Sequence record: MZ234008.1
DNA: 45,019 bases
Source: Escherichia phage vB_EcoS-22664B1
Reading direction: 5' to 3' (one strand)
The notes under the pieces are model-generated. The model saw only the letters and a list, made by a program, of their open reading frames with translations. It was not told where the DNA came from and made no database searches. Made by a program: the position numbers and the translations under genes. This document shows positions 3,266-40,980 of the stretch, in pieces (position 1 is the first letter of the stretch; every line of letters starts with the position of its first letter).

Positions 3266-3295
3266 CTTGACTTGCAACCAACATAAGGGCCATAC
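3266..3295 (+). promoter_or_regulatory. putative sigma70-like promoter (-35 TTGACT, 18-nt spacer containing TGCAACCAA, -10 CATACT)
   Basis: Hexamer matches read from sequence; spacer carries the recurrent GCAACCAA motif, with a second copy just downstream. Confidence 0.35.
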
Positions 3296-3327
3296 TGCAA
3301 CCAATCAACGAGAAGGAGTAATACACT

Positions 3328-3470: not shown

Positions 3471-4668
3471 ATGCACCCGCAAACTAAAATTACCGACGAG
3501 CAATTGATCGCTGAATTGCAATCTGGCACTACCTCGAAAGATATTGCGAAGAAATACGGCATTGCCCTTCGAAATGTCTATATGCGCAAAGCCCGCCTGT
3601 CGAAGAAAGGCATTGGTCACGGTAACGATGCCGTAATCCGTAAGCGCGTTGCCGATGGCTTCGGCGTTAAGCGTGTATCAGCCCTGGTGCGCGGCAATGG
3701 CGAAGAGGTCATGTCCTGGGTCATCACCGAGCAAGACAAGGAGCGCCAGCTTGAAGCAATGCGCGCCGTTGTCGAGGGCATGAATAGCGAAATCACACCG
3801 GCAGCACCAGTGAGCGCTCCGCCAGTCCCGATCCAGGCGCTTGACCTGCTTAACCTGTATACCGTGTCGGACTTCCACCTGGGAATGTTGGCGTGGGGCG
3901 AGGAGACTGGCGAGGACTGGGATATGGCAATCGCTGAAGACCTGTTCTACCGCTGGTTTGTCGAAGCCTTCGCCCGCGCACCGGACGCTGGAAGACCTGT
4001 TCTACCGCTGGTTTGTCGAAGCCTTCGCCCGCGCACCGGACGCTGGCACTGCCGTAATCAATATTCTCGGTGATATGGCGCATTTTGACAGCCTCGACGC
4101 CGTCACGCCAGCCAGTGGTCACGTACTGGACGCAGATACCCGCTACCAGAAACTGGTCCGCTACATGATTCGCATGGTGCGCAACGTGGTTGAACTGGCG
4201 CTGCAAAAACACCATAAGGTCAAACTGTTAATCGTCCAGGGTAATCATGATGAGTCCGGTATGATTTGGCTGGCTGAGATGTTCAATACCCTGTACGAGA
4301 ACGAGCCGCGCGTTGATGTGGACACGTCCCCGGACGTTTACAAAATGGTGCAGCACGGTAAAACAACGCTGTTCTTCCACCACGGACACAAAGCACGCTT
4401 TGACGCCATCGAACCGGTCATGATTTCTAAATTCAGACAGGCTTTCGGGTCCAGTGAGTACAGCTACGCGCACGTGGGCCACTTGCACCACCAGAAGATT
4501 GTTGAATCCCGCAACATGATTGTTGAACAGCACCGGACCCTTGCCGCGAAAGACGCATATGCGAGCCGCGGCGGTTGGATGTCTGGTCGTAGTGCTAACG
4601 TCATCACCTATAGCGCCAACTACGGCGAAGTAGCGCGCTTAACCATTAGCCCGGAAATGTTGAAATGA
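3471..4668 (+). pseudogene. HTH domain + calcineurin-like metallophosphoesterase gene, split by a 55-bp tandem duplication (frameshift)
   Basis: N-terminal HTH-like segment; metallophosphoesterase motifs SDFHLG, GDMAHFD, GNHDE, HHGH, GHLHH. ORFs 3471..4073 and 3841..4668 are the same gene in two frames; removing one 55-bp copy (3936-3990 or 3991-4045) restores one ORF of about 380 aa. Confidence 0.6.
3936..4045. repeat. perfect tandem duplication, 2 x 55 bp
   Basis: Unit gaagacctgttctaccgctggtttgtcgaagccttcgcccgcgcaccggacgctg occurs twice in tandem; cgctg microhomology at the junction. Confidence 0.9.
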
Positions 4669-8462: not shown

Positions 8463-9549
8463 TCAACATATGGCGGATCGTATGATTCGCCGTCACATCT
8501 TCACCCAGCGCCTGAGCAATGACCAGGCGCGAAGGGTGCTGACTATGTGGGAGAAGTTCCGGCCCACGTTACTTGGTAAGCTGACCGAGTTACTTGATGG
8601 CAAAAAGTCCATGAATAACAAGGCACTGACCACACTGTTAACGCAAATCGACAAGACCGTCAAAACGGAACTGCGCACCGAGTTTAAGGCGCTGGCTGAA
8701 AGCCTTCAGGAGTTCGCCGACACGGAGGCTGATTATCTTGCCGATACATTAACGGCAGCGATCCAGCCAGCGGTCGCCGTACCGGCTGTTGAGGTTGTTG
8801 GCGTAGTGACTGGCGCGCAGATCGCAGCGACGGCTATGAAAAACCCATTCCAGGGTAACACCATGATGCAATGGCCCGATTCACTTTCGGAGTGGACCAG
8901 GACGCAGATCGGTAATCAGGTGCGCGCTGGATTCATCCAGGGCAAGCCGACTATGGAAATTATCGCGGACGTAAGGCGCGCTCTCGGCGGTCGTAGTGCG
9001 CAGGCAATCTCAAGCGTTGTTAAGTCCGCAGTAAACCACTATGCGGCGACCGCCCGCGAATTAATGGTAAAAGCTAATGACGATATTCTCGAAGGTCGCC
9101 AATGGTTGGCTACATTGGATACGCATACTTCTCCCATGTGCCAGCTACGCGATCGCCTGTTTTATCCAGTTGATGTTACTCCCGACACCAAAGGAAAGCG
9201 CGGCGGGAAAGTGGTGGCTGGGTCACAATATGGCGCTGGTCCGGGCAAGCTGCATTATTGCTGCCGGTCTACGGAGACGTGGAAAGTCAAAGGCATGGAA
9301 GATTGGCCCAGTGGTAAGCGTCCGGCACTGAAGGCTGACGCGGGTCGATTGCTGAGTGAGCAGGTCGACGCGCAGACTGATTTCTTCTCATGGGTGCAGC
9401 GCCAGCCGCGCTATATTCTGGAGGAATTATATGGGGTGCAGCGCGCAGACCAGATTATGCGCGGCGTGAAAGTGCCGAATATGTTCACCGATACTGGCGA
9501 ACTAATGACTATCGCACAGCTTAAAAACCGGGGGTTATGGCGTGATTAA
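8446..9549 (+). CDS. head morphogenesis / minor capsid protein (Mu F / SPP1 gp7-like, putative)
   Basis: 367-aa ORF directly downstream of portal, overlapping its end; assignment by synteny. Confidence 0.5.
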   Translation: MARTINQHMADRMIRRHIFTQRLSNDQARRVLTMWEKFRPTLLGKLTELLDGKKSMNNKALTTLLTQIDKTVKTELRTEFKALAESLQEFADTEADYLADTLTAAIQPAVAVPAVEVVGVVTGAQIAATAMKNPFQGNTMMQWPDSLSEWTRTQIGNQVRAGFIQGKPTMEIIADVRRALGGRSAQAISSVVKSAVNHYAATARELMVKANDDILEGRQWLATLDTHTSPMCQLRDRLFYPVDVTPDTKGKRGGKVVAGSQYGAGPGKLHYCCRSTETWKVKGMEDWPSGKRPALKADAGRLLSEQVDAQTDFFSWVQRQPRYILEELYGVQRADQIMRGVKVPNMFTDTGELMTIAQLKNRGLWRD

Positions 9550-9850
9550 ATATGCAGCGATTGGACTGGTTATCGGTCTGGCGGTTGGATTCTGGCAGGG
9601 TGATTCCTACCGCACTGGCGTTGTGGCGAAAGCGGCGCAAGAAGCGCAAGCCGAAGCCCAACGGCAGCAAACTAAGGTTGTTGAGGGGTCGGTGAAGGCT
9701 GAGCAAGCCCGCGACGTGGAATACCGGACTATCACGAAAGAGGTTGTAAAATATGTTACGCGTCCTAACCGTCCTGATTGTAGTTTTGATGCTGAGCGCG
9801 TGCGGATCAAGCAAAGCGCCATCGACGCCGCTAACCGAGTCGGTCTATAG
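9542..9850 (+). CDS. i-spanin (Rz-like) candidate
   Basis: N-terminal TM helix (YAAIGLVIGLAVGFW) followed by charged coiled-coil-like region AKAAQEAQAEAQRQQ; contains an embedded +1 frame lipoprotein gene. Confidence 0.5.
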   Translation: MIKYAAIGLVIGLAVGFWQGDSYRTGVVAKAAQEAQAEAQRQQTKVVEGSVKAEQARDVEYRTITKEVVKYVTRPNRPDCSFDAERVRIKQSAIDAANRVGL

Positions 9851-9983
9851 ACCGCCTTGCACCTTTGAGAATGCCTCGGCAGATCCAGACGAGGACTTGC
9901 TTGTTGATGTTAAAAATATGGAATGCGGGGCTAAGCTGAGGGCGCAAGTGCTGGAGTTGCAGAAAATAATTCGGGGGCCGTAA
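9753..9983 (+). CDS. o-spanin (Rz1-like outer-membrane lipoprotein) candidate
   Basis: Signal peptide with lipobox LSAC (MLRVLTVLIVVLMLSAC), proline-containing mature part; starts inside the i-spanin gene in another frame and extends past its stop. Confidence 0.55.
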   Translation: MLRVLTVLIVVLMLSACGSSKAPSTPLTESVYRPPCTFENASADPDEDLLVDVKNMECGAKLRAQVLELQKIIRGP

Positions 9984-9996
9984 TGGCCCCCTTTTT
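9973..9996. terminator. bidirectional rho-independent terminator (gggggcc gtaat ggccccc + T-run)
   Basis: Stem-loop with T5 on + strand; lies between convergent genes 9753..9983 (+) and 9998..10762 (-). Confidence 0.65.
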
Positions 9997-9997
9997 G

Positions 9998-10762
9998 TTA
10001 GCGCGGAATACCGCAAATCTCGTTTAACGTCTTCACGTCCAGCGCTACTGCCGTTGACTTCGGCTTGTCCGGGTATGGAATGAACTGTTCAACTTCAGGC
10101 CACGCCGCGATCAGCTTCTTGTCAGTATTGTGCATATCCAGCACGCCGGTAACAGTTAGTTTGAACGCGTCATACTTCGCACGCAATTCACGGCGGGCCT
10201 TGTCGTTGCGGTCCAGGCGCTTGCAGAAATCATGATCTGCCGGGTAGTCTACGCGACCGCGCGGGAGATATATCGGCAGCGCGGCCCCGTTCTCGTCCAC
10301 TTCACACACTGACGCGAGCATAACTTCCTCGTACCCCGGTACTATATCGCTGAGATCCGGCGCGAGCGTATTCATATATTTCTCTTCCCAGTATCCGCGG
10401 TGCTGGCGGTAGCGGTATCCGTCGCCGCTCATATGCAGGGTACGGATGTTACCGCCTGCGTTGATTTCGAAAGTGGAGCAGTAAACGCGTCCAATGCCTT
10501 TCGTCCGGTCCTTGTTATAGCTGTACGACGCTTTCTCGGTGTAAACGCTGACGCCGTACATCTGCGACTGGTTATCGCGGATTTCTGCGATATATGCGCG
10601 TAGCTCGGCGAACGTGTGAATGCCTTTTGGCATACAGTGCAACGTAATGTCATACGCCAGGTCGCGAGAGTCCATCATGATTTTTTTGGCTTCAGTCGCG
10701 ATTTCGTGGTCGCGCAGGATGTTAGCCAGAATCTGGTTTTTAATGTCTTTTGTCAGTCTCAT
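9998..10762 (-). CDS. hypothetical protein (254 aa), opposite-strand gene island in structural module
   Basis: Intact ORF; start MRLTKD with GAGGA RBS-like sequence; own putative promoter at 10792-10821; no motif recognised. Confidence 0.6.
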   Translation of the reverse strand: MRLTKDIKNQILANILRDHEIATEAKKIMMDSRDLAYDITLHCMPKGIHTFAELRAYIAEIRDNQSQMYGVSVYTEKASYSYNKDRTKGIGRVYCSTFEINAGGNIRTLHMSGDGYRYRQHRGYWEEKYMNTLAPDLSDIVPGYEEVMLASVCEVDENGAALPIYLPRGRVDYPADHDFCKRLDRNDKARRELRAKYDAFKLTVTGVLDMHNTDKKLIAAWPEVEQFIPYPDKPKSTAVALDVKTLNEICGIPR

Positions 10763-10791
10763 TTGTGTGTCCTCATTGTTGGTGTGCAACC

Positions 10792-10821
10792 AATATAGTG
10801 CAACCAATACCTGGATTGCAA
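10792..10821 (-). promoter_or_regulatory. putative sigma70-like promoter (-35 TTGCAA, 18-nt spacer with TTGGTTGCA, -10 TATATT) for 9998..10762
   Basis: Read on - strand; same architecture as promoter at 30187-30216 (shared block tatagtgcaaccaa ... ttgcaag ... aattttgc). Confidence 0.4.
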
Positions 10822-10911
10822 GCGAATTTTGCGATTATTTTTATCGCTGATAATATTAGAGGCGTGAAGTCGAGCGGGTGGCCCGCTCTGCCACAATCCC
10901 AGGGGGATAGC

Positions 10912-11616
10912 ATGAAACTTACTAAAGCAGAATATGACGCGTTGCCGGAAAGTATGAAGGCGCTCTTTGTTGCCGATGGCGACGGGTATAAATCAACATT
11001 TATGTCCGCTGACGAAGTACAGGCGGAAATCAAGGGTCTGAAAGACAACAACGCAAAGCTGGTGAGCGAGAAGAAAGCAGAAGCTGAACGCCGCGCCGAA
11101 GCCGAGCGCCTTGCGAAAGAGAAAGAGGAAGCCGCCGCGCGCAAAAATGGCGACCTCGAAGCGATCGATAAGTCCTGGAAGGATAAGTTTGCAAAACACG
11201 AAGCAGACACATCGGGGAAAATCGAATCCTATCGCAAGCAGATCCATGACCTTACTATCGGCAGCGCTGCCAAAGACCTGGCCTCGAAGCTATTCGGTAA
11301 GAATGCTGGCATCATGCAACGCCACGTAATGGAGCGCCTCGCGCTGGAAGACGGCGAAGACGGCAGCTTGAAAGTGCGTGTCTTGCAGGATGGCAAACCG
11401 TCCGCGTTGACTATGGACGAGCTTGAAAAAGAGTTCCGTAATAACGCTGATTTTGCATCCGTCCTGGCTGGCACGCCAGCCGGTGGCGCACCGAGCAAAC
11501 CGACACAGGTTATCGAAGATGCGAAGTCTAAAATCACGATGGGCCATAGCTTCGGTATCACCGACCTGACGAAACAGGCAGGGGATATCATCGCTAAGAT
11601 GGGCGACGACGAGTAA
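10912..11616 (+). CDS. scaffolding protein (putative)
   Basis: 234-aa ORF rich in charged/helical segments (AEAERRAEAERLAKEKEEAAARK) immediately upstream of major capsid gene; AGGGGGA RBS-like sequence. Confidence 0.55.
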   Translation: MKLTKAEYDALPESMKALFVADGDGYKSTFMSADEVQAEIKGLKDNNAKLVSEKKAEAERRAEAERLAKEKEEAAARKNGDLEAIDKSWKDKFAKHEADTSGKIESYRKQIHDLTIGSAAKDLASKLFGKNAGIMQRHVMERLALEDGEDGSLKVRVLQDGKPSALTMDELEKEFRNNADFASVLAGTPAGGAPSKPTQVIEDAKSKITMGHSFGITDLTKQAGDIIAKMGDDE

Positions 11617-11620
11617 GCAG

Positions 11621-11646
11621 ATCGCCCGCGAAAGCGGGCGATTTTG
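11621..11646 (+). terminator. rho-independent terminator (atcgcccgc gaaa gcgggcgat tttg)
   Basis: 9-bp perfect stem, GAAA tetraloop, short T-run. Confidence 0.5.
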
Positions 11647-11713
11647 CGAGCGCGTAAATCTAAGGTAACATTAACGTCACTGGGCGAATGCTCACAACTC
11701 AAAGGATTTCGAT

Positions 11714-12814
11714 ATGTCTTTAACAGTGTTCCAGCGTAAACTCGTTACCGCGGTTACGCAGATGATTCCCGACAACCTGAACGTGTTCAACGCTGCCGCT
11801 AACGGCGCTGTTGTTCTCGGTACAGGTGAAGTGCTGAAGGACGTTGTAGAAAAAATGTCCGTAGGCTTGATCGCCAACCTCGTTACTGACCGTAACGCCT
11901 ACGCCCCTGTTGGTACTCCGGCAACCGCTAAAGTGCTGGCGCGTATGCTGACCAACTCGGTTAACCTCTCCGCGAAAGTGGGTCCGGTAGCAATCACCAA
12001 GGCTATGATGGCTAAGATCGAAACCAACGTTAACAGCGTTGCGGCTGAGATTGCGGCACAGGCTACTCAAGCGATTATGCTGCATTACCTGAAGGCCGGT
12101 ATCGGTGCAAGTAAAGCGGCGATCGAGAGCAACGCAGCGGCAGCATACACCCAACCGGCGCGCGTTGATGGCGTTGGCGGTCGTACCTTCCCGACCCTGG
12201 CAGACTTCCCGCTGGCGGCTTCTAAGTTCGGCGATCAGGCGTCTTTGATTAAGTCCTGGTTTATGGACGGCGTTACCTGGGCTAACTTCATTGCCTATCA
12301 GGCACTGCCTTCTGCGGAGCAGGTATTCGCTATCGGCGATCTGCAAGTAATGGGTGATGGCCTGGGCCGTCGTTTCATTATCTCCGATGCCGCTGCCGAT
12401 GCTATGGGCGCTGGCAAAATGCTGGGTCTGGTCCCTGGCGCGGTTGCAGTTACCACCAACGGCCTCGATATGCTGGCGCAGGAAAAAGGCGGTAACGAGA
12501 ACATCGAGCGCTGGTGGCAGGGTGAGTTCGACTTCAACGTGGCTGTTAAAGGCTACCGTCTGAAGGCGTCCGCTCGTACCCCGATCGAAGGCGTCCGCTC
12601 TTTTGCCCTGGGTGATATCACCACTAAGGACAACTGGGAACTGGATCAGGGCCAGGTTGACAACGCTCCGGCAACCGTCCAGGACGTTGGCGCGCAGGAC
12701 GGTAGCGGGTCACTCGGTCGTCGTAAGAAGCAGGCTGAACAGACCGCACCTACCCGTAACATCAAGGAAACGGCTGGCGTACTGGTTACGCTGACTGCTA
12801 CCAGCGCGTCTTAA
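11714..12814 (+). CDS. major capsid protein
   Basis: 366-aa ORF after scaffold, AAAGGA RBS-like sequence, terminator downstream; position and size typical of major capsid protein. Confidence 0.75.
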   Translation: MSLTVFQRKLVTAVTQMIPDNLNVFNAAANGAVVLGTGEVLKDVVEKMSVGLIANLVTDRNAYAPVGTPATAKVLARMLTNSVNLSAKVGPVAITKAMMAKIETNVNSVAAEIAAQATQAIMLHYLKAGIGASKAAIESNAAAAYTQPARVDGVGGRTFPTLADFPLAASKFGDQASLIKSWFMDGVTWANFIAYQALPSAEQVFAIGDLQVMGDGLGRRFIISDAAADAMGAGKMLGLVPGAVAVTTNGLDMLAQEKGGNENIERWWQGEFDFNVAVKGYRLKASARTPIEGVRSFALGDITTKDNWELDQGQVDNAPATVQDVGAQDGSGSLGRRKKQAEQTAPTRNIKETAGVLVTLTATSAS

Positions 12815-25640: not shown

Positions 25641-25665
25641 AAGGGGCCATCCGGCCCCTTTTTTA
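25641..25665. terminator. rho-independent terminator (aggggcc atcc ggcccct + T-run), between convergent genes
   Basis: Stem-loop with T6 on + strand; the - strand gene 25663..26637 ends right beside it. Confidence 0.65.
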
Positions 25666-26637
25666 ATAGATATTAGGAATGACGAGTAACGGGGTGGGTA
25701 CGGCAATATTTTTGCCCGGCATTTGGAATTGCTGCCGTGAGTAGTTGCCAATGACGCGGTTTTTGGCGATGCGCACATTATTACCCGCCATTCGTATCCC
25801 GTTCATGCGCACATGGTTATAGCCGCTGTTGTTCTCAATGAGCGCACCGGTATATGAAAGCTGGATCAGACTATTACCGATGTGCTGGTCGCCGCCACCG
25901 ATATTAATCGTGCGGTCGTAGACAAACGGCTTGTTTACCGTCGAGAACGTGACCTGCCCCTGGTTGTTAGTCATGGTGATACCGGTCCCCGGTGAGGGCG
26001 GCGTATTGTTGAATATCACCAGGTCCATATCAACGGCAGCGCCTACGTCGTCAATCCCGCCATAGGACGCATTACGGACAATGATACTTCCGCCATCGAA
26101 GCCAACCGATACGTTGCCGTCGTCCCAGCGCGCGAACGGGACACCGCCGACGGGAAGCGGCATACTTCCGTTTACATGCACGCGCTGCGCATATCGGCAG
26201 GTCATTAGCCGTGCGACGTTGGATATTGCGGTGAAGTCCGTTGAGTTAGCTACCAGTAAGCCCGCATTGCGTGACCCCACCGGCAGCACTTCCATAATCA
26301 CCCCGCCCCATGTTGGAAGCCCGCTGTATGCGTTATAGGCATCCTCACCGCGCAAGGTGATTCCGCCATCCCCGTTACGTTGTATCGACGTCACATAAAA
26401 CGGGTCTGGCAAGACCAGGGTCTGGTCGAATACTTCCATCACTTCTACCGGATTAGTTAGGGCAACGACCAGTTCGGACCCCGGTGTCAGCGGTGTGTTA
26501 ATGGTCAGCGTCTTGTCAGACTGACAGCGCTGATTAAAGGTAGTGCAGAACGACGGAGCGCGAAGGCCCGCGGTTATCTCCATGACAGGTCTACCGTCGT
26601 TGTAGTCGATAAGTATTCCAGCACCCATTATTACCAC
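25663..26637 (-). CDS. hypothetical protein (324 aa), possible tail/receptor-binding-associated protein
   Basis: Intact - strand ORF between J-like gene and tail fibre; Gly/Asn/Thr-rich, beta-rich composition; function unknown. Confidence 0.5.
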   Translation of the reverse strand: MVIMGAGILIDYNDGRPVMEITAGLRAPSFCTTFNQRCQSDKTLTINTPLTPGSELVVALTNPVEVMEVFDQTLVLPDPFYVTSIQRNGDGGITLRGEDAYNAYSGLPTWGGVIMEVLPVGSRNAGLLVANSTDFTAISNVARLMTCRYAQRVHVNGSMPLPVGGVPFARWDDGNVSVGFDGGSIIVRNASYGGIDDVGAAVDMDLVIFNNTPPSPGTGITMTNNQGQVTFSTVNKPFVYDRTINIGGGDQHIGNSLIQLSYTGALIENNSGYNHVRMNGIRMAGNNVRIAKNRVIGNYSRQQFQMPGKNIAVPTPLLVIPNIY

Positions 26638-26852
26638 TCCCGTGATTTAACTGATACAGTACCTGAGAAATTGCCGTCGCTATCGGCAGATAGGCCAGTG
26701 AAGCGCATGTCCACGTCTCCGGCAGGGACTTTTTGCCCGTCAACATAACGCAACATGCAGCTTCCGTAAGCCACCGTAATGCAATCACCGTTGTTGCGTT
26801 CTACGGCACAACCGGACAAAAGAACAGCACAAATCATAATTAAAGTTTTCAT
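26631..26852 (-). CDS. small lipoprotein (73 aa; possible superinfection-exclusion lipoprotein)
   Basis: Start MKTLIMICAVLLSGC with lipobox LSGC and AGGAG RBS-like sequence; first gene of the two-gene - strand cassette. Confidence 0.6.
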   Translation of the reverse strand: MKTLIMICAVLLSGCAVERNNGDCITVAYGSCMLRYVDGQKVPAGDVDMRFTGLSADSDGNFSGTVSVKSREW

Positions 26853-26932
26853 GTTATCATCTCCTATATTTGGTTGAGTTTTAGTATTACACCGCTCGAT
26901 CAAGAATGCAACCAATTTATGAGGATTCAGCT

Positions 26933-28980: not shown

Positions 28981-29004
28981 AGGGGCCGTACGGCCCCTTT
29001 TTTA
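28981..29004 (+). terminator. rho-independent terminator (aggggccg ta cggcccct + T-run)
   Basis: Perfect stem-loop plus T6; the - strand gene 29002..29577 ends here. Confidence 0.7.
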
Positions 29005-29577
29005 GTTTGAGTTTTCCCAATCCATTTTGCGCCGCACCAGCGGACTCTCATAATATTCCTTGCCTTCTACTTCCACCAACGGCCAATCGTTCACGATTAC
29101 GTACGGTTCCGCAATATCCTCAATCACGCCGTGCGCGCTATGTTGTCCGAACGATACACCCACCAGGATAACACCGGCAACTCGACGGGTTAGATACTCG
29201 CGAGCGCAACGGGCTTCTACCAGTCCGCGACGGATGCCGCTGGTGGCTTTGACCTCGTAGGTCCAGACGGCGTCAATCATGTGCTCACGGAAGTCGGGGC
29301 CGGACTTAACCTTGCGCTTACCGACCATTATAATATCGCCGCGGTCGATAGTATTGGCGCTAAACAGGCCGGTACGCATAAGTAAGCCTTGCGGAATACA
29401 ACTGCGTCCGCCTGCCTGCCCTTCAAGGTACATGCCCGCAAACATCTCGCCCAGCACACCGACAAGACGGCTTTGCTTGCACGCGTCAGACTTTAAGCGC
29501 CACTGGTCAAACTCGACGCTTGCTAACATTGCCGCGATGTGGAATTGTTTACCGGTTATTTCGTATTCGCCGTACAT
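29002..29577 (-). CDS. hypothetical protein (191 aa)
   Basis: Intact ORF, last gene of leftward operon; no motif recognised. Confidence 0.5.
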   Translation of the reverse strand: MYGEYEITGKQFHIAAMLASVEFDQWRLKSDACKQSRLVGVLGEMFAGMYLEGQAGGRSCIPQGLLMRTGLFSANTIDRGDIIMVGKRKVKSGPDFREHMIDAVWTYEVKATSGIRRGLVEARCAREYLTRRVAGVILVGVSFGQHSAHGVIEDIAEPYVIVNDWPLVEVEGKEYYESPLVRRKMDWENSN

Positions 29578-29619
29578 TGTGAAGTCCTCATTGCTGCGGG
29601 CCGAAGCCCGCTATTAGAA

Positions 29620-30142
29620 TTATTTAAGTGCGCTAGTCACCAGTGTTTTTTCCATGTTGCGGAAGTCTTCCGGCGTCATGAGAATTTTGGACCCATCCTC
29701 GCCAGTGAGCACGACCATAGGCTGGACTTCTTGATCTACCACACCGAAATTGGCGGCGTTAACCATCTTGCCAGCAGATGACGAAGGATGCCACGCACCG
29801 GCAATGTCAAGGGGCCAACCCTTGAGGCTGTCGAATTGCGCTGCCGTTGTATCGATCTGAATCTCATCATGCACGGTCATGTGCGACTCACCCAGTAGTG
29901 CGGCATACGCAACCAGGTCAACAATATTGTCTTCCTGGTGCTTACGGTGCTGGCGCACCAGCTTCAGGCAGATCAGGAAGGTCCAGGCTTCTTGCTCTGT
30001 AAGGTCGCGACCGGTAAGCGCGTTAAACACGGCAGCGATTTGCTTCGCGCTGCGTTCTTCTTTCGCGTTATCATAGCCGTTCTCTTTCCCGCGCTGTTCC
30101 ATAGTGGTGGCGGCGTTCTTGCAGTATTCAAATGCTTTCATG
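29620..30142 (-). CDS. hypothetical protein (174 aa)
   Basis: Start MKAFEY with AAAAGGAAAA upstream; preceded by putative promoter 30187-30216. Confidence 0.5.
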
Positions 30143-30186
30143 ATGTTTTCCTTTTTAGTGGGGGCCGGATTGCCCCCGACGAGATA

Positions 30187-30216
30187 ACTATAGTGCAACC
30201 AACCTATTGGTTGCAA
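30187..30216 (-). promoter_or_regulatory. putative sigma70-like promoter (-35 TTGCAA, 18-nt spacer, -10 TATAGT) overlapping palindrome TGCAACCAA-ccta-TTGGTTGCA
   Basis: Read on - strand; perfect 9-bp inverted repeat at 30194-30216 inside the spacer region. Confidence 0.4.
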
Positions 30217-30674
30217 GTAAATTTTGCTACGTTTATAGAATAAATTTTAGGGACCAGATCGCTGCACGCCCGACGGATGGCTTCGATATTCTTCGGGCAG
30301 TCTTCAATGATGACCAGTTCCGACACGTCCGCATAGCACACCATTTTGAACACAGCGCACGCCTTAAACTCTGGCGGAGGGGTGTCGTCCAGCATGTGGC
30401 GCATGAACAACCGGCCCGTCGGGAATACTTCCAATTGCTTGGCGGTCGTGTCCCAGCATTCGCGCTGCCGGTTAGTCAGATACGCTATCTCGAAGCCTTG
30501 CTCTTTGTACATGCGCAGCAGCGGCAGCATATCCATGTTAAGGTCTTCGCGTACGTGTGCTTTGTGCCACTTCGCCCAAAAGGTTGATTTGGTTTTTATG
30601 CCGGGCACCAGGTCAGCACGCGCATCACTTGAACCATTAATAACGCCATCCAGATCACAAATCAGTAGTTTCAT
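30204..30674 (-). CDS. HAD-superfamily phosphatase-like protein
   Basis: N-terminal motif LICDLDGVIN (DxDG), later LTNR and C-terminal Asp-containing segments typical of HAD phosphatases/nucleotidases. Confidence 0.5.
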   Translation of the reverse strand: MKLLICDLDGVINGSSDARADLVPGIKTKSTFWAKWHKAHVREDLNMDMLPLLRMYKEQGFEIAYLTNRQRECWDTTAKQLEVFPTGRLFMRHMLDDTPPPEFKACAVFKMVCYADVSELVIIEDCPKNIEAIRRACSDLVPKIYSINVAKFTCNQ

Positions 30675-30895
30675 TTTAAGCTCTCAATAAGGGTGTAGCG
30701 GGCGCTTCGCGCAGTAACGGAGTTGCATACAAAATGGCAACGCTTGGTTATGACAAGCCAGCCGGTGAGGTCCAGGCCCAGGATGTATTCCGGGCGGCTG
30801 GCGCGCATCACTCGGTCGCGGCGCGGGTCAATGATGAAGTCCCTTTGCATTTGGTCCACTACCGCGGGGTCGCGGTCAACGATTAAGATATTCAT
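30671..30895 (-). CDS. hypothetical protein (74 aa)
   Basis: ORF with overlapping stop/start couplings to both neighbours. Confidence 0.4.
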   Translation of the reverse strand: MNILIVDRDPAVVDQMQRDFIIDPRRDRVMRASRPEYILGLDLTGWLVITKRCHFVCNSVTARSARYTLIESLK

Positions 30896-31361
30896 GTAGT
30901 TCTCTCTCGCTCATTATTTCAATTTGTGCGCTGCCGATGGGCGGCGCTTCGTCAAATATTATCAATTGCTGGCACTTGTTATTGCTCGGCCCAACTTCGC
31001 CGGTCACAGCATGGATAAATCGCACACGCCAGTCCAGAAGAATTATCATATTGGCAGTCTTCCGGGCCAGCTTCGCCCACTTCGTTGACGTGTCCTGATT
31101 CAGTAGCATGACAGTACGGCGTCCGTGCGCAGCGCACTCGACCCACGGCAGCGGATCGGAGTACGGCGGGTTGCACCACTTCCACCCTTTCAACTCTGAC
31201 CAGTCCGCATCAAGCGCGCTATGCTCTGCCGTGAAGTAGCGCGGTAGCAGGTGATTGGCGTCGCTTGCAGCCATATCGTAACGAAATCGGTACTTACGGC
31301 GCAGCGGTTTAAATAAAGCTGGCGGAGTGCGCCAGCTATCCTTTTGCTCACTCTTCTGCAT
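30876..31361 (-). CDS. DNA N6-adenine methyltransferase (phage Dam-like)
   Basis: Motifs WRTPP.LF, RF.YDMAAS..N, YFT and CNPPYS match the phage N6-adenine methyltransferase family (motif IV NPPY). Confidence 0.75.
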   Translation of the reverse strand: MQKSEQKDSWRTPPALFKPLRRKYRFRYDMAASDANHLLPRYFTAEHSALDADWSELKGWKWCNPPYSDPLPWVECAAHGRRTVMLLNQDTSTKWAKLARKTANMIILLDWRVRFIHAVTGEVGPSNNKCQQLIIFDEAPPIGSAQIEIMSERELHEYLNR

Positions 31362-31812
31362 GGTCGGTGTCTATCGCGTAAAGGGCAATCTTTTCCCCTT
31401 TCTTCAGGATTCGCTGCAATCGCTGCGTCTCCGACACCCCCAAAGGGCGCGCGTCCGGGTAGAAGTTGCCGTTTGTTGGGTGTCGCCACGCCATAAGCAC
31501 CAGGTCTTTACGGGCGACCGCGGACTGGCGGCCCTTCGGACGCACGTACGCCTCGGCACGTTTGCAATGCTCACGCAGACCTTCAGCCGTCATGCGATTA
31601 AGCACCGCGGTGGTTGTGTATCCGGTGCGCTGCATAATCCCCATCAGTTCGAACAGCAGTTCGAAGCGCTCCTCTAACTCCTTGCGCACCTTCTCCTCAC
31701 CTTCATAGCTCGCAAGGTAGGTGTCTGCCAGCGCGTTCGCGCGTTCGGCCTGTTCGCGGGCTTCGAGGCACTGCGCGGCCCAGTAATTTTTCTCTTCTTG
31801 TAAAATTTTCAT
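31348..31812 (-). CDS. hypothetical protein (154 aa, coiled-coil-like N-terminus)
   Basis: Intact ORF in operon. Confidence 0.45.
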   Translation of the reverse strand: MKILQEEKNYWAAQCLEAREQAERANALADTYLASYEGEEKVRKELEERFELLFELMGIMQRTGYTTTAVLNRMTAEGLREHCKRAEAYVRPKGRQSAVARKDLVLMAWRHPTNGNFYPDARPLGVSETQRLQRILKKGEKIALYAIDTDHAEE

Positions 31813-32055
31813 TTATTTAAGCTCCGTAGTGCGGATTTCATCGCGTGGGATAAATTTGCCGTCCATCTCTACCCAGCAAACACCGTAGCGCCATTGGGTA
31901 TTACGGCCTGTTTGCTCGGCGTACACGGTCTGGCATTCGTAGCGGTCGACGTAGTAAATAGCCGTAGAAGGGATACCAATACAACCGGCAAACATGAGGG
32001 TTAGTATTACCCAAAATCGAAGGTCGCCATCGTAGTCGAAAAACAATGATTTCAT
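31813..32055 (-). CDS. small membrane protein (80 aa)
   Basis: Start MKSLFF with GGAGAC RBS-like sequence; hydrophobic helix FWVILTLMFAGCIGI. Confidence 0.45.
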   Translation of the reverse strand: MKSLFFDYDGDLRFWVILTLMFAGCIGIPSTAIYYVDRYECQTVYAEQTGRNTQWRYGVCWVEMDGKFIPRDEIRTTELK

Positions 32056-32073
32056 CGTAATGTCTCCAGGTAT

Positions 32074-32101
32074 TAAAAAGGGCGTCCAACCGGACACCCT
32101 T
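32074..32101 (-). terminator. putative - strand terminator/attenuator hairpin (gggtgtcc ggtt ggacgccc + U-run)
   Basis: Hairpin followed by T-run when read on - strand; lies between genes 32136..32459 and 31813..32055. Confidence 0.35.
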
Positions 32102-32135
32102 AAGATAATGCAACCAATCTAATTACGCAACCAAT

Positions 32136-32459
32136 TTATTCATAAAAATTTGGGTCGCGCGCTACGTCTACCAGATACAAGTTGCTCATGCGGTTGCCGT
32201 AGTGCCCTGGCGTGCGCTGGCGGCACACAACGGCGAAACCTGGAGGGATTGTATTGCCCGTCTCGATAATCCACGCCACGCGCGCGCCAGACAGCGTCTT
32301 GCCGTTGCATTCGATACGCGTACCGCCATCGGCAGTGTTAAGGTTGCCAATCTTGCAGCCGGTAGACTTCAGACGGATGACGCCGGTCTTACTGTCGTAG
32401 GTGAATAGTTGGTTAGTCATTGCTACCGAGAAGTCGATGGCTTCGAATGTAGTATTCAT
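32136..32459 (-). CDS. HNH-like endonuclease (putative)
   Basis: Motif ...ARVAWIIETGNTIPPGFAVV...GNRMSNLYLV resembles the HNH/AP2-type homing endonuclease pattern (G..IP.G..V.H.DG...NN...NL.LV) but lacks a clear His-Asp pair. Confidence 0.35.
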   Translation of the reverse strand: MNTTFEAIDFSVAMTNQLFTYDSKTGVIRLKSTGCKIGNLNTADGGTRIECNGKTLSGARVAWIIETGNTIPPGFAVVCRQRTPGHYGNRMSNLYLVDVARDPNFYE

Positions 32460-33151
32460 TTTAAATTTTCCTCATTGACTGCAATTGCGAAGCCGCGCGG
32501 AGTGAGCGACCGGATTAATTTGGTGCGGGCAGATTTGCCACCGAGGCGACTATACTGCTTCGAGTACCCTTTTTCAACGAATACCGGCTTTTTCTCCGGC
32601 ATACGAAAGCCATTGCCGGTCCATAAACAGGTCAGCTTTGGATATGAATCGCGGTCGTTGATGTATTCCGGGAACAACGGATGTACGTCATCCTCCGGCA
32701 GATAGCCGCCATACTCCCACGGATCAAACGAGTGGTCTGGCTTGCGCCACTGGGTGGATAGCACACTGCGCGGATTCTCAATCATATATGGCACTTCAAA
32801 GAAGTCACCCAGGTAAGCGGCAATCTTCGCGGTGCGCACTGCCTTAAGCTGAAAGGCGGGGTCTTTCGCACGCTTGCACGGGAAAGCTGTCGCACCGCTC
32901 ACCGCCAGATCCGTACACGGCGGAAACGCGTAGATAATATCCGGCGTGCCGAAATCGCCATTCATCGCGCGGTCCACGAAGTCCAGATCGATAAACTCGT
33001 TACGATAGCGGATACCGCGACCATAAATCCGGTAGTCAAGGTAAGACCCGTGATCGGCTTCCGAGTAGTTGAAACAGTAGCATTTATGCCCCATCTCGGC
33101 AGCGCGCTCTATCATCAAGCCGCTGCCGTCAAATAATGACCAGATAATCAC
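32456..33151 (-). CDS. DNA cytosine-C5 methyltransferase-like protein (putative, short)
   Basis: Motif I-like SLFDGSG, motif IV-like FPPC, motif VI-like ENP; only 231 aa, so domain completeness is uncertain. Confidence 0.4.
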   Translation of the reverse strand: MIIWSLFDGSGLMIERAAEMGHKCYCFNYSEADHGSYLDYRIYGRGIRYRNEFIDLDFVDRAMNGDFGTPDIIYAFPPCTDLAVSGATAFPCKRAKDPAFQLKAVRTAKIAAYLGDFFEVPYMIENPRSVLSTQWRKPDHSFDPWEYGGYLPEDDVHPLFPEYINDRDSYPKLTCLWTGNGFRMPEKKPVFVEKGYSKQYSRLGGKSARTKLIRSLTPRGFAIAVNEENLK

Positions 33152-34572
33152 TTGCGCACCTTCTTAGCTTTCATGTATTCCATCAAGTCGTCCTGGATGT
33201 CGCGCTTACCATCGCGGCGGTCCGCCACCAGTTCGTCCAGTGTCCCGCGTGCCTGGATAATATAGACGAATACCGGTCGAGGGTGCCCGGCTTGCATCTG
33301 GCGAACTGGCCCGATACGCTCCACGATCTGCGCAAAGTGCTCATAGTTCCACGTATCCGAGAAGATAGCCAGGTGATGACCGCCGTCCTGCAAGTTAAGG
33401 CCGTGACCAGCCGATGCCGGGTGTGCGAACATGATGGGAATCTCTCCCCTGTTCCACGCTTCCATATCCTTATTGCCCTGCTTACCCTTACCCATCGCAA
33501 CGCCGTGGGGAAACTTCTTCTTCAGACGTGCCAGGTCGTGCTTGTACTGGTACGCAACGAGCAACGGCGCTCCGTTCAACTCCTCTACGATACTTTCCAG
33601 CGCGTCCAGCTTGGCGTCGTGAATCTTCTCCCACTCGTCGGTCCGCTCTCCGTCTTCGTCCACCTTATACACGGCACCGGATGCAAGCTGAAGGCACTTG
33701 ATGGTCTTAGCCGCAGCGTTCGCCGCTTCCACTGTTCCGCTTTCCAGTTCGGCAAATAGCTCACTCTCAAACTGGTCATAAATCTTGCGGGCTTTCTTCG
33801 GCAGGTCCACGACAACCGGCGTGTAGATTGGCTTGTCACATCCGAAGTATTCAGCCGCGTCCACGGTAAGGGATACATCGGACAGGCGCTGTTGGATCTC
33901 CTTCTCGGAGTTCTTTAGCGGGGCGTGCTGCATAGTGAAGCTGCCTGGCTTAACAGGCTTGCTAATAAACCAGCGATCGGTGAATGCCTTATAGCTACTG
34001 CCGAGTCGTTCGCCACCGTCGACAAACCACGTCTGGCCCCATAGGTCTTTCAGTCCGTTTGGTGCTGGTGTGCCGGTCAGGTTAATCCAGCGCCTGACGT
34101 GCTTATGTGCGATCGCCGCCAGTGCGCGTGCGCGCTTACTGCCTTGCTTGCTGCGATAGCCTTTCAGCTTAGTGGATTCATCGGCAACAACGACCGTAAA
34201 AGGCCACTCGTCGCCGCAATACTCGACAAGCCACTCAACAACATCGTAGTTGACACAAACCACGTTAGCGTTGCTCTCAAGCGCCGCAATGCGGTCCTTC
34301 TCTGGCCCGGTGCCGTCTACTACCAGCAGGGCGGGGAATCTCCATTTTTCTTGTTCCGGGGGCCACGTACCGGACGCAACGCGCAGCGGGGCCAGCACCA
34401 GTACGCGGTCCTCCTGGTTGGACAGGATGCCAGTCTGGAACATTTTGTTTAGCGCCCACATAGTCGCGCCGGTTTTACCGGACCCCATTGTCGCCCAAAT
34501 ATTGCAGCGCTCATGCTTGAGAATAAACGCGGTTATCAATTTCTGATATTCGCGACGTCGGAATCGTGCCAT
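33148..34572 (-). CDS. SNF2/SF2-family helicase (ATPase)
   Basis: Walker A ATMGSGKTG, DExx-like VVADESTKLKG, C-terminal helicase motifs HGLNLQ and QIVERIGPVRQ; start taken as MARFRRREYQ. Confidence 0.8.
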   Translation of the reverse strand: MARFRRREYQKLITAFILKHERCNIWATMGSGKTGATMWALNKMFQTGILSNQEDRVLVLAPLRVASGTWPPEQEKWRFPALLVVDGTGPEKDRIAALESNANVVCVNYDVVEWLVEYCGDEWPFTVVVADESTKLKGYRSKQGSKRARALAAIAHKHVRRWINLTGTPAPNGLKDLWGQTWFVDGGERLGSSYKAFTDRWFISKPVKPGSFTMQHAPLKNSEKEIQQRLSDVSLTVDAAEYFGCDKPIYTPVVVDLPKKARKIYDQFESELFAELESGTVEAANAAAKTIKCLQLASGAVYKVDEDGERTDEWEKIHDAKLDALESIVEELNGAPLLVAYQYKHDLARLKKKFPHGVAMGKGKQGNKDMEAWNRGEIPIMFAHPASAGHGLNLQDGGHHLAIFSDTWNYEHFAQIVERIGPVRQMQAGHPRPVFVYIIQARGTLDELVADRRDGKRDIQDDLMEYMKAKKVRK

Positions 34573-34576
34573 ATCT

Positions 34577-34801
34577 TTATTCCGCCTTTTTCCAGACTTC
34601 GGTTTCACTGTTCCAATTCCTCTTTGTGGCGTCGTAGTTGGTGGCGTGTCCAATGTGCACACCGGTCGCGCGGAAGCTCTTAAACTTCTGCCAGCACACT
34701 GTCAACGGCAGCGGGTAATTCATGCCTGCGATAAACCATACGCGATCGCCAGGTTTGCACTCGCCCAGCTTGGTGAGTCGGTAATGTTCTTTCATCGTCA
34801 T
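34577..34801 (-). CDS. hypothetical protein (74 aa)
   Basis: Intact ORF in operon. Confidence 0.4.
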   Translation of the reverse strand: MTMKEHYRLTKLGECKPGDRVWFIAGMNYPLPLTVCWQKFKSFRATGVHIGHATNYDATKRNWNSETEVWKKAE

Positions 34802-34837
34802 GCCTCCAAAAATGGCGGGACAAGCCCGCCGTATTGA

Positions 34838-35011
34838 TTATTCTTGTTCTGCGCGATAGCGGCGCTGCCGTTCACGTTCTTTCTTATTGCGGCACGATTT
34901 GCACTCGGCCCGATGCCCGTCTGGACTGCGCGCAGTCTTTCCGGTGTATTTGTGGAACTGGGATAGCGGCTTGATGCATCCGCAATTACTACAACGTTTT
35001 TCTTCAATCAT
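34838..35011 (-). CDS. small zinc-ribbon-like protein (CxxC...CxxC)
   Basis: Start MIEEKRCSNCGC...; two Cys pairs (CSNCGC and CKSCRN) and basic C-terminus. Confidence 0.4.
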   Translation of the reverse strand: MIEEKRCSNCGCIKPLSQFHKYTGKTARSPDGHRAECKSCRNKKERERQRRYRAEQE

Positions 35012-35051
35012 TTCTAAAATCCTCGATAGGGCTAACCGGCACACTATACCG

Positions 35052-35330
35052 CTACGCGACCAATTCAGCAACCAATAAATCGCAGTCGGCTATGTTGTCA
35101 ATAACGCGAACGTCAGCACCGCGGCGGGCCATTCGCTCATGTTCTCGCACCTGGTGCGGCTTCGGTTTTCCTCCGGGGCGCTTCACTTCGACGAATACTA
35201 TGATGCCGTTGATGATAATAATCAGGTCGGGCGCACCTGCGCGCCCCTCCCATGCCAGCTTGCGGCAGAATCCGCCAACCTCTTTCACCCGTCGCATCAG
35301 GTGACTTTGAATCTTGCCTTCTGGTGTCAT
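35052..35330 (-). CDS. VRR-NUC domain nuclease
   Basis: Motif GAPDLIIIINGIIVFVEVKRPGGKPKPHQ matches the VRR-NUC signature (PDL ... E.K ... Q). Confidence 0.6.
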   Translation of the reverse strand: MTPEGKIQSHLMRRVKEVGGFCRKLAWEGRAGAPDLIIIINGIIVFVEVKRPGGKPKPHQVREHERMARRGADVRVIDNIADCDLLVAELVA

Positions 35331-35518
35331 TTGGTTTGCAACTCCACGTTACGCAGACGTAGATCTACCGGTATGTCAGATCTACCGGTTAGCGCCAGCG
35401 CCAGGTTTTCAGGCGTGACAAGTGCCGTGATGGTCTTGCCACGTTCCAGTCTAAGGACGATGCGAATCTCGTCATCGTCCGTCGCGCCAGCGCGCATTAT
35501 GCTTAATTCTGCTTTCAT
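35327..35518 (-). CDS. hypothetical protein (63 aa)
   Basis: Start MKAELSIM with AGGAAGT RBS-like sequence; between DNA polymerase and VRR-NUC. Confidence 0.4.
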   Translation of the reverse strand: MKAELSIMRAGATDDDEIRIVLRLERGKTITALVTPENLALALTGRSDIPVDLRLRNVELQTK

Positions 35519-35522
35519 AATC

Positions 35523-37814: not shown

Positions 37815-37981
37815 TGCTTTATCCTCACTACTGCGTCAGCGCTGCCGATCATGGAGAAGATACCATCCGACAAGGCAATCTCTTCGCCGTTGTTGCGAAT
37901 CTCGGCAACGGTAAAATACTCGCCCAGCAATTTGGACCATACACGCATTCCGACTTTTACTTCACTGGCTTTAATACGCAT
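37811..37981 (-). CDS. small hypothetical protein (56 aa), translationally coupled to DNA polymerase
   Basis: ATG with AGGA upstream; its TGA overlaps the polymerase ATG (ATGA). Not in ORF track (<60 aa). Confidence 0.35.
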   Translation of the reverse strand: MRIKASEVKVGMRVWSKLLGEYFTVAEIRNNGEEIALSDGIFSMIGSADAVVRIKQ

Positions 37982-37993
37982 TTTTCATTGTCC

Positions 37994-38020
37994 TAATAAA
38001 AAGCCCGCAATAAGCGGGCT
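37994..38020 (-). terminator. rho-independent terminator on - strand (agcccgc ... gcgggct + U-run)
   Basis: On - strand the hairpin is followed by TTTTATT; sits directly after the in-frame stop of the SSB tail frame (38040-38042). Confidence 0.55.
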
Positions 38021-38039
38021 TGAATAGTGGGCTTTGCCC

Positions 38040-38773
38040 TTAACGGCGGCGACGTTTACGTGGTGCTTCGTCTTCGTCGTCGTCGTCCTCGTCTTCGTCA
38101 TCACGACGTTTGGACTTCTTAGCCTTGCGCGGTGCTTCATCTTCGTCATCGTCATCACGACGTTTGGACTTCTTAGCCTTGCGCGGTGCTTCATCTTCGT
38201 CATCGCGTCGCCCAGGTCGTCATCGGAACAAGAAGACCCGCCGCCACCGAAGGAGTCACCATCGTCACGGAAGCGAAGACCCATCAAACCCGCACCTAGA
38301 CCTTTGCCGTTGGTGTTGTTCCACGCCCAAATATCCAGGGACACGTTGCAATAACAACCGGAATAGATTTCCTGGCCTTCGATCTCGTCGCCGTCGATAG
38401 TCAGACCCTGTTCGGTCTGCTTCTCGCCCAGTGACGTTTGGATGTTAGGCTGTTTGAACGATTTGGCGTTGATGTACAACATTCCTTCGAATTCTTCGGT
38501 TACTTCGTCGCGCTCGTCACCGTCGCGAACTGCGCATTCCTTAGAATCCTGGGCGTAGTGGCGGTCCATCCACTTATCGGCGTTCTTCTCGGATTTCAGC
38601 TTGTCGGTAAGCACTGCGCGCGCTGCCGCTTCCACTTTGTCCACCTGCGGATCTTCTTTATCAAGAAGAATCACGGCACGGTATGCCGGTTTTTGTCCAT
38701 CCTGTTTAGGGGTATCACGTTCCCAAATTTTCAGGAAGCATACGCGTACATTTTTCAGGTTGACTTTAGCCAT
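38040..38773 (-). CDS. ssDNA-binding-protein-like (T7 gp2.5 / DUF2815-like) with charged repeat tail; -1 frame discontinuity near 38200-38219
   Basis: Body (start MAKVNLKNVRV, GAGGA RBS-like) is in the ORF-track frame. The C-terminal tail (DDEDEAPRKAKKSKRR x2 then DDEDEDDDDEDEAPRKRRRR) is in another frame ending at TAA 38040-38042; its third module differs from the first two only by synonymous changes in that frame. Confidence 0.5.
38098..38205. repeat. perfect tandem duplication, 2 x 54 bp, inside SSB-like tail
   Basis: Unit tcatcacgacgtttggacttcttagccttgcgcggtgcttcatcttcgtcatcg repeated head-to-tail; a degenerate third copy lies at about 38044-38097. Confidence 0.9.
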
Positions 38774-38836
38774 TTTCATTTCCTCATTTCGCATGTATCG
38801 GGGTTATTGTGAGCCACCCCGTTCGGCTTGGTTGCT

Positions 38837-38865
38837 AATTTACTTGGTTGCGCCTAAGCGGTCAA
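38837..38865 (-). promoter_or_regulatory. putative sigma70-like promoter (-35 TTGACC, 17-nt spacer with GCAACCAAG, -10 TAAATT) upstream of SSB-like gene
   Basis: Read on - strand; a second GCAACCAAG copy lies just downstream of the -10. Confidence 0.4.
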
Positions 38866-39104
38866 GCACTTTTATTAAAAAGATTTCGTGTCACGTAGTT
38901 GGTGGCGTTCTCGATCCAGCTTAACGGCGGGCGGTCGATGTGCTTCTCAACCCAGTCGACGGCGACGTCGCTATATCCGTCGTCCAGCCAGCGGGATGGA
39001 TGGCGAATCATCCAGGCCAACATTAACACGCCTTGCACGCAATGCAGGATAAATCCCAGCGCGCCGAGCATAATCATCAATACGAATGCGAATACCTTAT
39101 TCAT
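38862..39104 (-). CDS. small membrane protein (80 aa)
   Basis: Hydrophobic N-terminus VFAFVLMIMLGALGFILHCVQGVLMLAWMI; overlaps end of upstream nuclease gene. Confidence 0.45.
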   Translation of the reverse strand: MNKVFAFVLMIMLGALGFILHCVQGVLMLAWMIRHPSRWLDDGYSDVAVDWVEKHIDRPPLSWIENATNYVTRNLFNKSA

Positions 39105-40527: not shown

Positions 40528-40715
40528 TATTCCACCCTTGAAAATTGAGCAATGTAATAATCGTGTTTAACATTGGCGCGCTTCGCGGCTTCGTTCATGG
40601 TTGATGCCAGTCCGCGGGCTTGCGTCCAGCAACAATTCCAGTTTTGATTCATAACAATTTCTGGTTGCTCGTCGCCGGTAATACGGCAGCGAAATAAAAC
40701 AAAGAATATAGTCAT
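40527..40715 (-). CDS. hypothetical protein (62 aa)
   Basis: Start MTIFFVLF overlapping upstream stop (TAATG); weak RBS. Confidence 0.35.
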   Translation of the reverse strand: MTIFFVLFRCRITGDEQPEIVMNQNWNCCWTQARGLASTMNEAAKRANVKHDYYIAQFSRVE

Positions 40716-40966: not shown

Positions 40967-40980
40967 TGTCTCGTCCTCTA

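Follow-up and report, generated by a model that had tools for sequence, protein, structure and literature searches.

We analysed 45,019 nucleotides (nt) of Escherichia phage vB_EcoS-22664B1 (sequence record MZ234008.1), called the window below, with the focus on a single gene that runs against its neighbours. An earlier sequence-only reading had noticed a minus-strand open reading frame (ORF) of 254 amino acids (aa) between the spanin and scaffold genes of an otherwise plus-strand head module. This arrangement holds: the ORF at 9998..10762 has a ribosome-binding site (RBS) and encodes a protein of the Nmad5 family. Together with its surroundings it forms a self-contained cassette, made of a promoter with two copies of the 9-mer TTGGTTGCA, a short leader, one cargo gene and a shared hairpin. 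The frame from promoter to terminator is a slot conserved across the genus Dhillonvirus, and its cargo is variable, with five configurations found. The features of the locus are as follows.

9542-9850 and 9753-9983, plus strand: overlapping Rz and Rz1 spanin genes, as annotated in the relatives Bas85 and SECphi18.
9973..9991, either strand: GC-rich hairpin, candidate terminator for the Rz1 (plus) and nmad5 (minus) transcripts.
9998..10762, minus strand: nmad5 coding sequence (CDS), ATG start, 254 aa, stop codon at 9998-10000, called from the ORF and its Pfam match.
10770..10774, minus strand: RBS GAGGA, 7 nt 5' of the ATG, read from the sequence.
10807-10799 and 10793-10785, minus strand: two tandem TTGGTTGCA copies, which overlap the spacer, the -10 element and the predicted start.
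10792..10821, minus strand: sigma-70-like promoter reported by the scanner, with -35 TTGCAA (10821-10816), an 18-nt spacer and -10 TATATT (10797-10792).
10763..10911, no strand assigned: control region between the divergent nmad5 and scaffold genes, highly conserved, with 90% mean column identity in the alignment.
10829-10834 and 10851-10856, plus strand: weak candidate promoter read by eye, TTGCGA, 16-nt spacer, TAATAT.
10872-10888, within the control region: conserved hairpin of -13.8 kcal/mol.
10912-11616, plus strand: head scaffolding gene, as annotated in Bas85 and SECphi18.

What does the gene encode? The protein matches the Pfam family PF18757 Nmad5 ("Nucleotide modification associated domain 5") with E=4.8e-56 and 190.5 bits, where the gathering cut-off is 27, and the match is full length, covering protein residues 1-253 and model positions 1-206 of 206. 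The earlier statement that the protein shows no recognisable motif is thus superseded. The product is assigned to phrog_1965, of unknown function, and its lambdoid homologues are named "Nmad5 family putative nucleotide modification protein" by the NCBI pipeline. The same gene at the same locus beside the scaffold gene has been described in the phages SM_A8 and SM_S22 (Yamashita et al. 2025, Commun Biol 8:290; PMC11846954). The window protein shares 82% amino-acid identity with the proteins of both phages and has K216 at the equivalent position; judged by these sequences, the window gene is the orthologue of the Dhillonvirus nmad5 of that study. The sensitive profile search and structure prediction that the sequence-only reading had proposed recovered the Nmad5 family only, with no homology to virion or assembly families (Pfam, PHROG, Foldseek and viral structure models). 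PDB sequence searches gave nothing significant, whether the query was the protein alone or a profile of 141 sequences, NCBIfam and PADLOC gave zero matches, and no catalytic or cofactor-binding motif or fold was recognised by Pfam, NCBIfam, PDB sequence search or Foldseek against the PDB. A DNA mimic was considered and rejected, for Nmad5 has an isoelectric point of 7.0, close to the family median of about 7.

Is the cassette the same in all related phages? Presence or absence among relatives, which the sequence-only reading had named as a check, gives a clear answer: the cargo varies, and nmad5 is absent from Sodalis phage SO-1 and so is not universal in the genus. What the genus keeps is the promoter with its leader as far as ...TTGGTTGCACACCAACA and, at the other end, the terminator. 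The five configurations between them are given below.

nmad5 alone: window phage, SECphi18 and SM_S22.
A 104-109-aa gene (phrog_24635), then nmad5: Bas85, welsh, SM_A2 and SM_A8; about 61 records at identities of at least 80%.
nmad5, then a clamp-like gene of 171-184 aa: WF5505; 16 records at identities of at least 80%.
All three genes: CHD5UKE2.
The clamp-like gene alone, directly behind the same promoter: SO-1.

The head module of SO-1 is the same, and Nmad5 was found nowhere in its genome by tblastn and by a profile hidden Markov model run on the six-frame translation. In the relatives that have nmad5 first behind the promoter, the GAGGA RBS is kept. The clamp-like cargo (L003 903-1457, L004 903-1418 and L036 5082-5600 in the relatives' loci) weakly resembles the central domain of the DNA polymerase III beta clamp (PF02767, E ~1e-4) and has distant homologues in about 220 other phage records, mainly from Salmonella, Escherichia and Klebsiella phages; it could be a clamp mimic or a clamp-binding protein. 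The 104-109-aa gene, placed between the promoter and nmad5 (L005 1703-2032 and L004 2280-2609), has no Pfam match. It looks like a mobile accessory gene, because a Pantoea phage and phages of about 155 kb genome size also carry homologues, at 54-62% identity.

The promoter that the sequence-only reading placed at 10792-10821 stands as well, being reported by the scanner, sharing the 9-mer with other sites and lying in a conserved control region. It is the sole sigma-70-like site reported by the scanner in 9000-12000; 2.1 are expected there, so the count itself is not above chance. Transcription is predicted to start near 10785. In the alignment of nine Dhillonviruses the promoter is almost invariant, and the control region as a whole is 93-98% identical, compared with 68-91% at the third-codon positions of nmad5. 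Non-coding DNA is therefore more constrained here than synonymous sites. The candidate plus-strand promoter in the same region agrees with the consensus at 8 of 12 positions and was not among the scanner's reports.

The same earlier reading had also assigned this promoter to one class with the site at 30187-30216, which it took for an early-operon promoter. The class assignment agrees with our comparison, in which 23 of 30 positions are identical by manual count and the 9-mer is shared, but the site is not an early-operon start: it is internal to the minus-strand array. This sister promoter (minus strand; TTGCAA, 18-nt spacer, TATAGT) lies ahead of a DUF6378 gene at 29620-30141 and contains a perfect palindrome, TTGCAACCAA-TAGG-TTGGTTGCA (30193-30216). 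The 9-mer has 12 exact copies in the window, where 0.44 are expected, and none of 100 shuffles reached that number. The copies are at 71-79, 102-110, 634-642, 3273-3281, 3296-3304, 10785-10793, 10799-10807, 26907-26915, 30194-30202, 30207-30215, 32109-32117 and 41868-41876; eleven of them are outside called genes, and SECphi18 and SO-1 have copies at corresponding positions. At most sites the 3' half of the 9-mer, TTGCAx, coincides with the -35 hexamer. One possible role of the 9-mer is that of an extended -35 element; another is that of an operator bound by a phage regulator, such as the helix-turn-helix protein at 42067-42396. The GTTGCA(TT) core of the 9-mer resembles the CytR octamer of E. 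coli.

There are related observations elsewhere in the window. The module from the -10 element through the RBS is near-identical at 102-124 on the plus strand (TTGGTTGCACACCAACATGAGGAC) and at 10770-10793 on the minus strand (TTGGTTGCACACCAACAATGAGGAC), and the genes behind the two modules, 132-437 and nmad5, are unrelated, which suggests that a regulatory cassette was duplicated or exchanged between the two places. A second minus-strand island, at 25663-26852 in the tail module, carries genes for a Cor-like lipoprotein (73 aa) and a DUF6453 membrane protein (321 aa), and the TTGGTTGCA copy at 26907 precedes it. This island is probably a superinfection-exclusion cassette with the same promoter class as nmad5.

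At the other end of the cassette, a bidirectional terminator had been proposed, and the hairpin at 9973-9991 could indeed end both transcripts. Its predicted folding energies on the two strands are -17.1 and -17.3 kcal/mol (z-scores -2.8 and -3.2); behind it, the plus strand has a canonical U-tract and the minus strand an interrupted one, GAAUUAUUUU. As a speculation, late convergent read-through of this shared hairpin could shut nmad5 off late in infection. An Rfam scan of 9700-11100 gave nothing above threshold.

Is nmad5 really expressed? The orthologue of SECphi18 has been detected in infected cells. The protein, YP_010844185.1 (254 aa, start MRLTKDIK), was identified by mass spectrometry with 18 peptides and 154 spectra lying between residues 6 and 254, and its signal was about 2-6e5 at 0 min and about 1.2-3e7 at 30 min post infection (Supplementary Table S2 of Béchon et al. 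2024, bioRxiv 10.1101/2024.01.31.578182), an increase of about 20-70 fold. Pairwise ratios of nonsynonymous to synonymous substitution rates (dN/dS) are 0.12-0.30 for nmad5 and 0.02-0.18 for the adjacent scaffold gene, and the amino-acid identity to SECphi18 is 85% for Nmad5 and 94-98% for the flanking gene products. The gene is thus real, translated and under purifying selection, yet it evolves faster than its structural neighbours.

To describe the family, an exhaustive profile search was made, which gave 735 clusters at 50% identity with a typical length of 190-230 aa; motif conservation was read from a 141-sequence alignment of the representatives of such clusters. The Dhillonvirus proteins have insertions at about residues 79-94 and 119-160. 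Conserved positions are R2, L3, T4, R/K8, I11 and N14 at the N-terminus, then G104 and G113, and then the C-terminal motif T213-x-x-K216-L217-x-x-x-W221-P222-E223, which is the most conserved in the family and includes K216, followed by P229, L246-N247 and G251-x-P253. The window protein has all of the family motifs (M-R-L-T..I(R/K)..I..N, G104, G113 and TxxKLxxxWPE...P...LNxxxGLP). An AlphaFold2 model made with the family alignment has a predicted local distance difference test score (pLDDT) of 91.3 and a predicted template modelling score (pTM) of 0.84. The fold combines a bundle of helices with a four-stranded sheet, and a beta-bridge joins residue 2 to residue 213. In the model, therefore, the N-terminal and C-terminal conserved segments are adjacent and K216 lies within the site that they form, and we propose a pocket there between the N-terminus and TxxKLxxxWPE. 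Foldseek of the model against the PDB gave no solved-structure match (best E=1.4), and against viral structure models it matched solely members of the Nmad5 family.

The genomic contexts of the family were surveyed at 25 diverse loci on viral contigs, found with a 20-sequence subset of the alignment as query; the gene was callable in 20 of them. A scan of bacterial genomes gave 2 loci, too few for use. The neighbours are thymidylate-synthase-like genes (3 loci), HMUDK (2), lysozyme (3), AAA_24 (2) and DNA polymerase A (2), together with RusA, NinX, YqaJ, and capsid and cement proteins. Modification-type neighbours, that is thymidylate-synthase-like or HMUDK genes, occur at 3 of the 20 loci; the neighbours in the window are spanin and scaffold genes. 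The family owes its name to an association with modification genes, which is a feature of context and does not decide membership by sequence. No neighbour family is present in more than 3 of the 20 loci, so there is no conserved partner gene in this sample, and Nmad5 would therefore be a stand-alone protein with a minority of members in hypermodification cassettes. In phage Bas97, for example, nmad5 lies within the replication module.

A link between nmad5 and the defence system Tmn is known from published work (PMC11846954). Independent Tmn-escape mutants of SM_A8 and SM_S22 have in common a Lys-to-Glu change in nmad5, given as K216E and "K296E"; reversion of the change restores Tmn sensitivity, and the engineered change gives escape. 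The deletion of nmad5 is viable, gives no escape and leaves sensitivity unchanged, and the gene could not be cloned, apparently for its toxicity. Phages with wild-type nmad5 are Tmn-sensitive, and the true anti-Tmn gene is another one, ORF35; Tmn also strongly blocks phage T1, in which we found no Nmad5. These data appear to run against Nmad5 as an anti-Tmn protein. Nor do they bear it out as the trigger of Tmn, given that deletion brings no escape and that T1 is blocked without it. The general guess of a host-interaction or anti-defence function made in the sequence-only reading fits the Tmn-escape point mutants, the dispensability and the toxicity; a direct anti-defence or exclusion activity of the wild-type protein would be conjectural.

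Note that the two published mutations are at one residue. The published 334-aa Nmad5 of SM_S22 (L038 2006-3010, PP627283.1) is an annotation artefact, in which 80 extra N-terminal residues are read through the conserved promoter and on into the opposite strand of the scaffold gene. The true start is M81, which begins the sequence MRLTKDIK found family-wide, and therefore K296 is K216. The "truncated N-terminus" reported for SM_A8 Nmad5 arises because the SM_S22 annotation is over-extended.

Then what is the function of Nmad5? It is a protein that is made in infected cells, that the phage can do without, that is not structural and that has a genetic connection to Tmn evasion. Morons are independently transcribed accessory genes within late operons, a concept reportedly due to Juhala and Hendrix in 2000. 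By its sequence the locus is an accessory cassette of this moron type, and we lean slightly towards the reading that its Nmad5 is a stand-alone, probably non-catalytic, host-directed factor. According to this proposal, Nmad5 would bind a conserved component of DNA or nucleotide metabolism, and the binding site would be the invariant N-terminus (R2-L3-T4) together with the C-terminal TxxKLxxxWPE. Such binding would account for the toxicity in cloning, and also for the usual place of the family in early or replication modules. The charge reversal of K216E would change what Tmn sees, as a neomorphic mutation, and deletion would not.

Several points weigh against this reading. The claim that Nmad5 is non-catalytic comes from negatives only, namely no catalytic motif and no fold match. 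R2, T213, E223 and N247 are almost invariant polar residues and D176-H177 are partly conserved, a pattern that an enzyme with a new fold could show. The family is linked to 5-hydroxymethyldeoxyuridine (5-hmdU) kinase and hydroxymethylase genes at 3 of the 20 loci and in Pseudomonas phage M6. Promoter activity, start, termination and timing are predictions, and the binding partner or ligand is a proposal. The pocket was derived from secondary-structure output, and the proteomic detection in SECphi18 is pulldown background and not a designed time course.

The published authors adopted another reading (PMC11846954): Nmad5 would be an enzyme that modifies the bases of DNA or nucleotides, or else an essential cofactor of such an enzyme, Tmn would sense the modified DNA, and K216E would alter the modification. 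The family name agrees with it, as do the place of the M6 gene between modification genes, the thymidylate-synthase-like or HMUDK neighbours at 3 of the 20 loci, the family-wide invariance of some polar residues, and the presence in the window phage of genes for a Dam methyltransferase and for the DUF6378 protein behind the sister promoter. However, Tmn sensitivity is the same after nmad5 deletion, and the thymidine hypermodification of M6 was rebuilt in vitro with gp54, gp51, gp53 and gp52 alone, without Nmad5 (PMC8989533). The searches above revealed neither a cofactor or catalytic motif nor an enzyme fold, there is no conserved adjacent partner, and most contexts are without modification genes. 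Dhillonviruses show a comparatively high sensitivity to restriction-modification systems (PMC8594841). The gene is missing from SO-1, and T1, which is also without it, is still blocked by Tmn. A base-modifying enzyme in the window phage is thus unlikely. A role in head assembly, with Nmad5 as a structural component working with the scaffold and capsid genes, is suggested by the position between head-morphogenesis or spanin genes and the scaffold gene, and a few distant homologues do adjoin capsid or cement genes. But the gene is on the opposite strand with its own predicted promoter and terminator, its deletion is viable, SO-1 has the same head module without it, it has no similarity to structural families, and most homologues are in early or replication modules. 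We consider this role highly improbable.

Could Nmad5 be a dedicated inhibitor of one specific bacterial defence, which K216E merely retargets onto Tmn? Its own promoter in a variable-cargo slot is what such a gene might have, and so is its faster evolution, with 85% identity beside 94-98% for its neighbours and the higher dN/dS given above. In phage lambda, ral and sieB lie just after N, and nmad5 of Shiga toxin (Stx) phages lies at that very place; moreover, a single missense change is enough to give Tmn evasion. Against this, no defence system is known to be countered by wild-type Nmad5, and toxicity in defence-free cloning strains suggests a housekeeping target. The N- and C-terminal motifs are kept across phages of Escherichia, Pseudomonas, Vibrio, Bordetella and alphaproteobacteria, which points to a widely conserved target and not to a patchy defence system. 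We regard an inhibitor of this kind as rather doubtful. The host-directed factor in a moron-type cassette can also be extended to a bolder scenario, which we offer only as a long shot: Nmad5 would be no modification protein at all but the founding member of a widespread phage family for host takeover or for the interface with immunity, with its own fold and a pocket engaging a host DNA-metabolism factor; Tmn, a KAP-type NTPase, would monitor that interaction or its product; K216E would turn Nmad5 into a blocker of Tmn signalling; and the slot would be a genus-wide exchange site for counter-defence genes under a TTGGTTGCA regulator.

Published work already covers the gene, the family it belongs to, its place next to the scaffold gene and its connection with Tmn, and the genome itself is a deposited record. 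New here are the slot with variable cargo, a promoter class defined by the 9-mer, the placing of the escape residue within the core motif, a corrected reading of the 334-aa annotation and the arguments against an enzyme. These additions are refinements. Nevertheless, the locus exemplifies a virulent siphophage with a fixed promoter-terminator "socket" in its head module, through which accessory genes are swapped. The name of the large Nmad5 family implies an enzymatic role that is unsupported by the evidence assembled here. For groups working on Tmn, it should be of use that the escape residue lies in the most conserved motif and that the SM_S22 "extension" is an artefact.

As for the setting of the locus, the 2.3 kb around nmad5 is 100% identical to Escherichia phage vB_EcoS-101114B2 (MZ234014.1) and 91-99% identical to more than 130 further Dhillonvirus members. 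The window phage is a virulent Dhillonvirus, and its gene order agrees with that of annotated relatives, from which the two blocks are taken: the plus strand carries the genes for lysis, packaging, head and tail, and the minus strand, at 29002-42072, those for replication and nucleotide metabolism. The GC content of 10001-11000 is 0.517 and that of both flanking windows 0.535, a gap too small to interpret. The ORFs 10620..10850 (plus) and 10773..11210 (minus) and a short deposited CDS (record 10658-10765, about 10743-10850 of the window) were rejected as spurious, as they overlap the conserved promoter or are antisense to real genes. We also asked whether nmad5 is the Ksap1 gene, and this was ruled out: Ksap1 is the 74-aa gene at 30671-30895 (minus), whose product is 89% identical to SECphi18 Ksap1. 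Ksap1 of SECphi18 directly activates the Klebsiella Avs2 (KpAvs2) defence (Béchon et al. 2024), and with this homologue the window therefore has a second known defence-interface gene. Elsewhere, 3936-3990 and 3991-4045 form a perfect 55-bp tandem duplication relative to MZ234014.1, which frameshifts a gene for an SbcD-like calcineurin-like phosphoesterase and so splits it between two ORFs, 3471-4073 and 4075-4668. The duplication may be natural variation, may have arisen in assembly or may be a mutation that inactivates the gene.

How does the nmad5 unit compare with known systems? The nearest are SM_S22 and SM_A8, which have the same 254-aa protein, Lys216 and promoter region as the window. 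Pseudomonas phage M6 has an Nmad5 of the same Pfam family (E=2e-33) with the same N- and C-terminal motifs, but this protein has 186 aa and lacks both Dhillonvirus insertions. Its gene sits between those for the 5-hmdU DNA kinase and the hydroxymethylase, whereas no hypermodification genes were found in the window phage among the deposited annotations and in a Pfam scan of ten non-structural proteins. The Stx-converting lambdoid phages (Traversvirus) are another case: their full-length Nmad5 (E=3e-71) is the product of an accessory gene, and they have no known base hypermodification, as in the window phage. They differ in being temperate, in the length of the protein (207 aa, compared with 254 aa) and in the place of nmad5, which directly follows the N antiterminator gene in the early pL operon, while that of the window is isolated in the late region. 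The Stx-phage version is present in 211 of 5426 complete E. coli genomes.

The nmad5 unit can also be compared with the morons of lambdoid and T1-like phages, such as cor. It is unlike them in three respects. The window phage is virulent, so there is no prophage expression and no benefit to a lysogen; the base composition of the unit barely differs from that of its flanks; and the cargo belongs to a phage-typical family associated with DNA metabolism and is not a host-fitness gene. On the other hand, the nmad5 unit, like these morons, has what appear to be its own promoter and terminator within a late structural operon and would be transcribed oppositely or independently in a structural module. 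Like them, too, it is dispensable and present or absent between close relatives, and its cargo varies among phages that are otherwise collinear.

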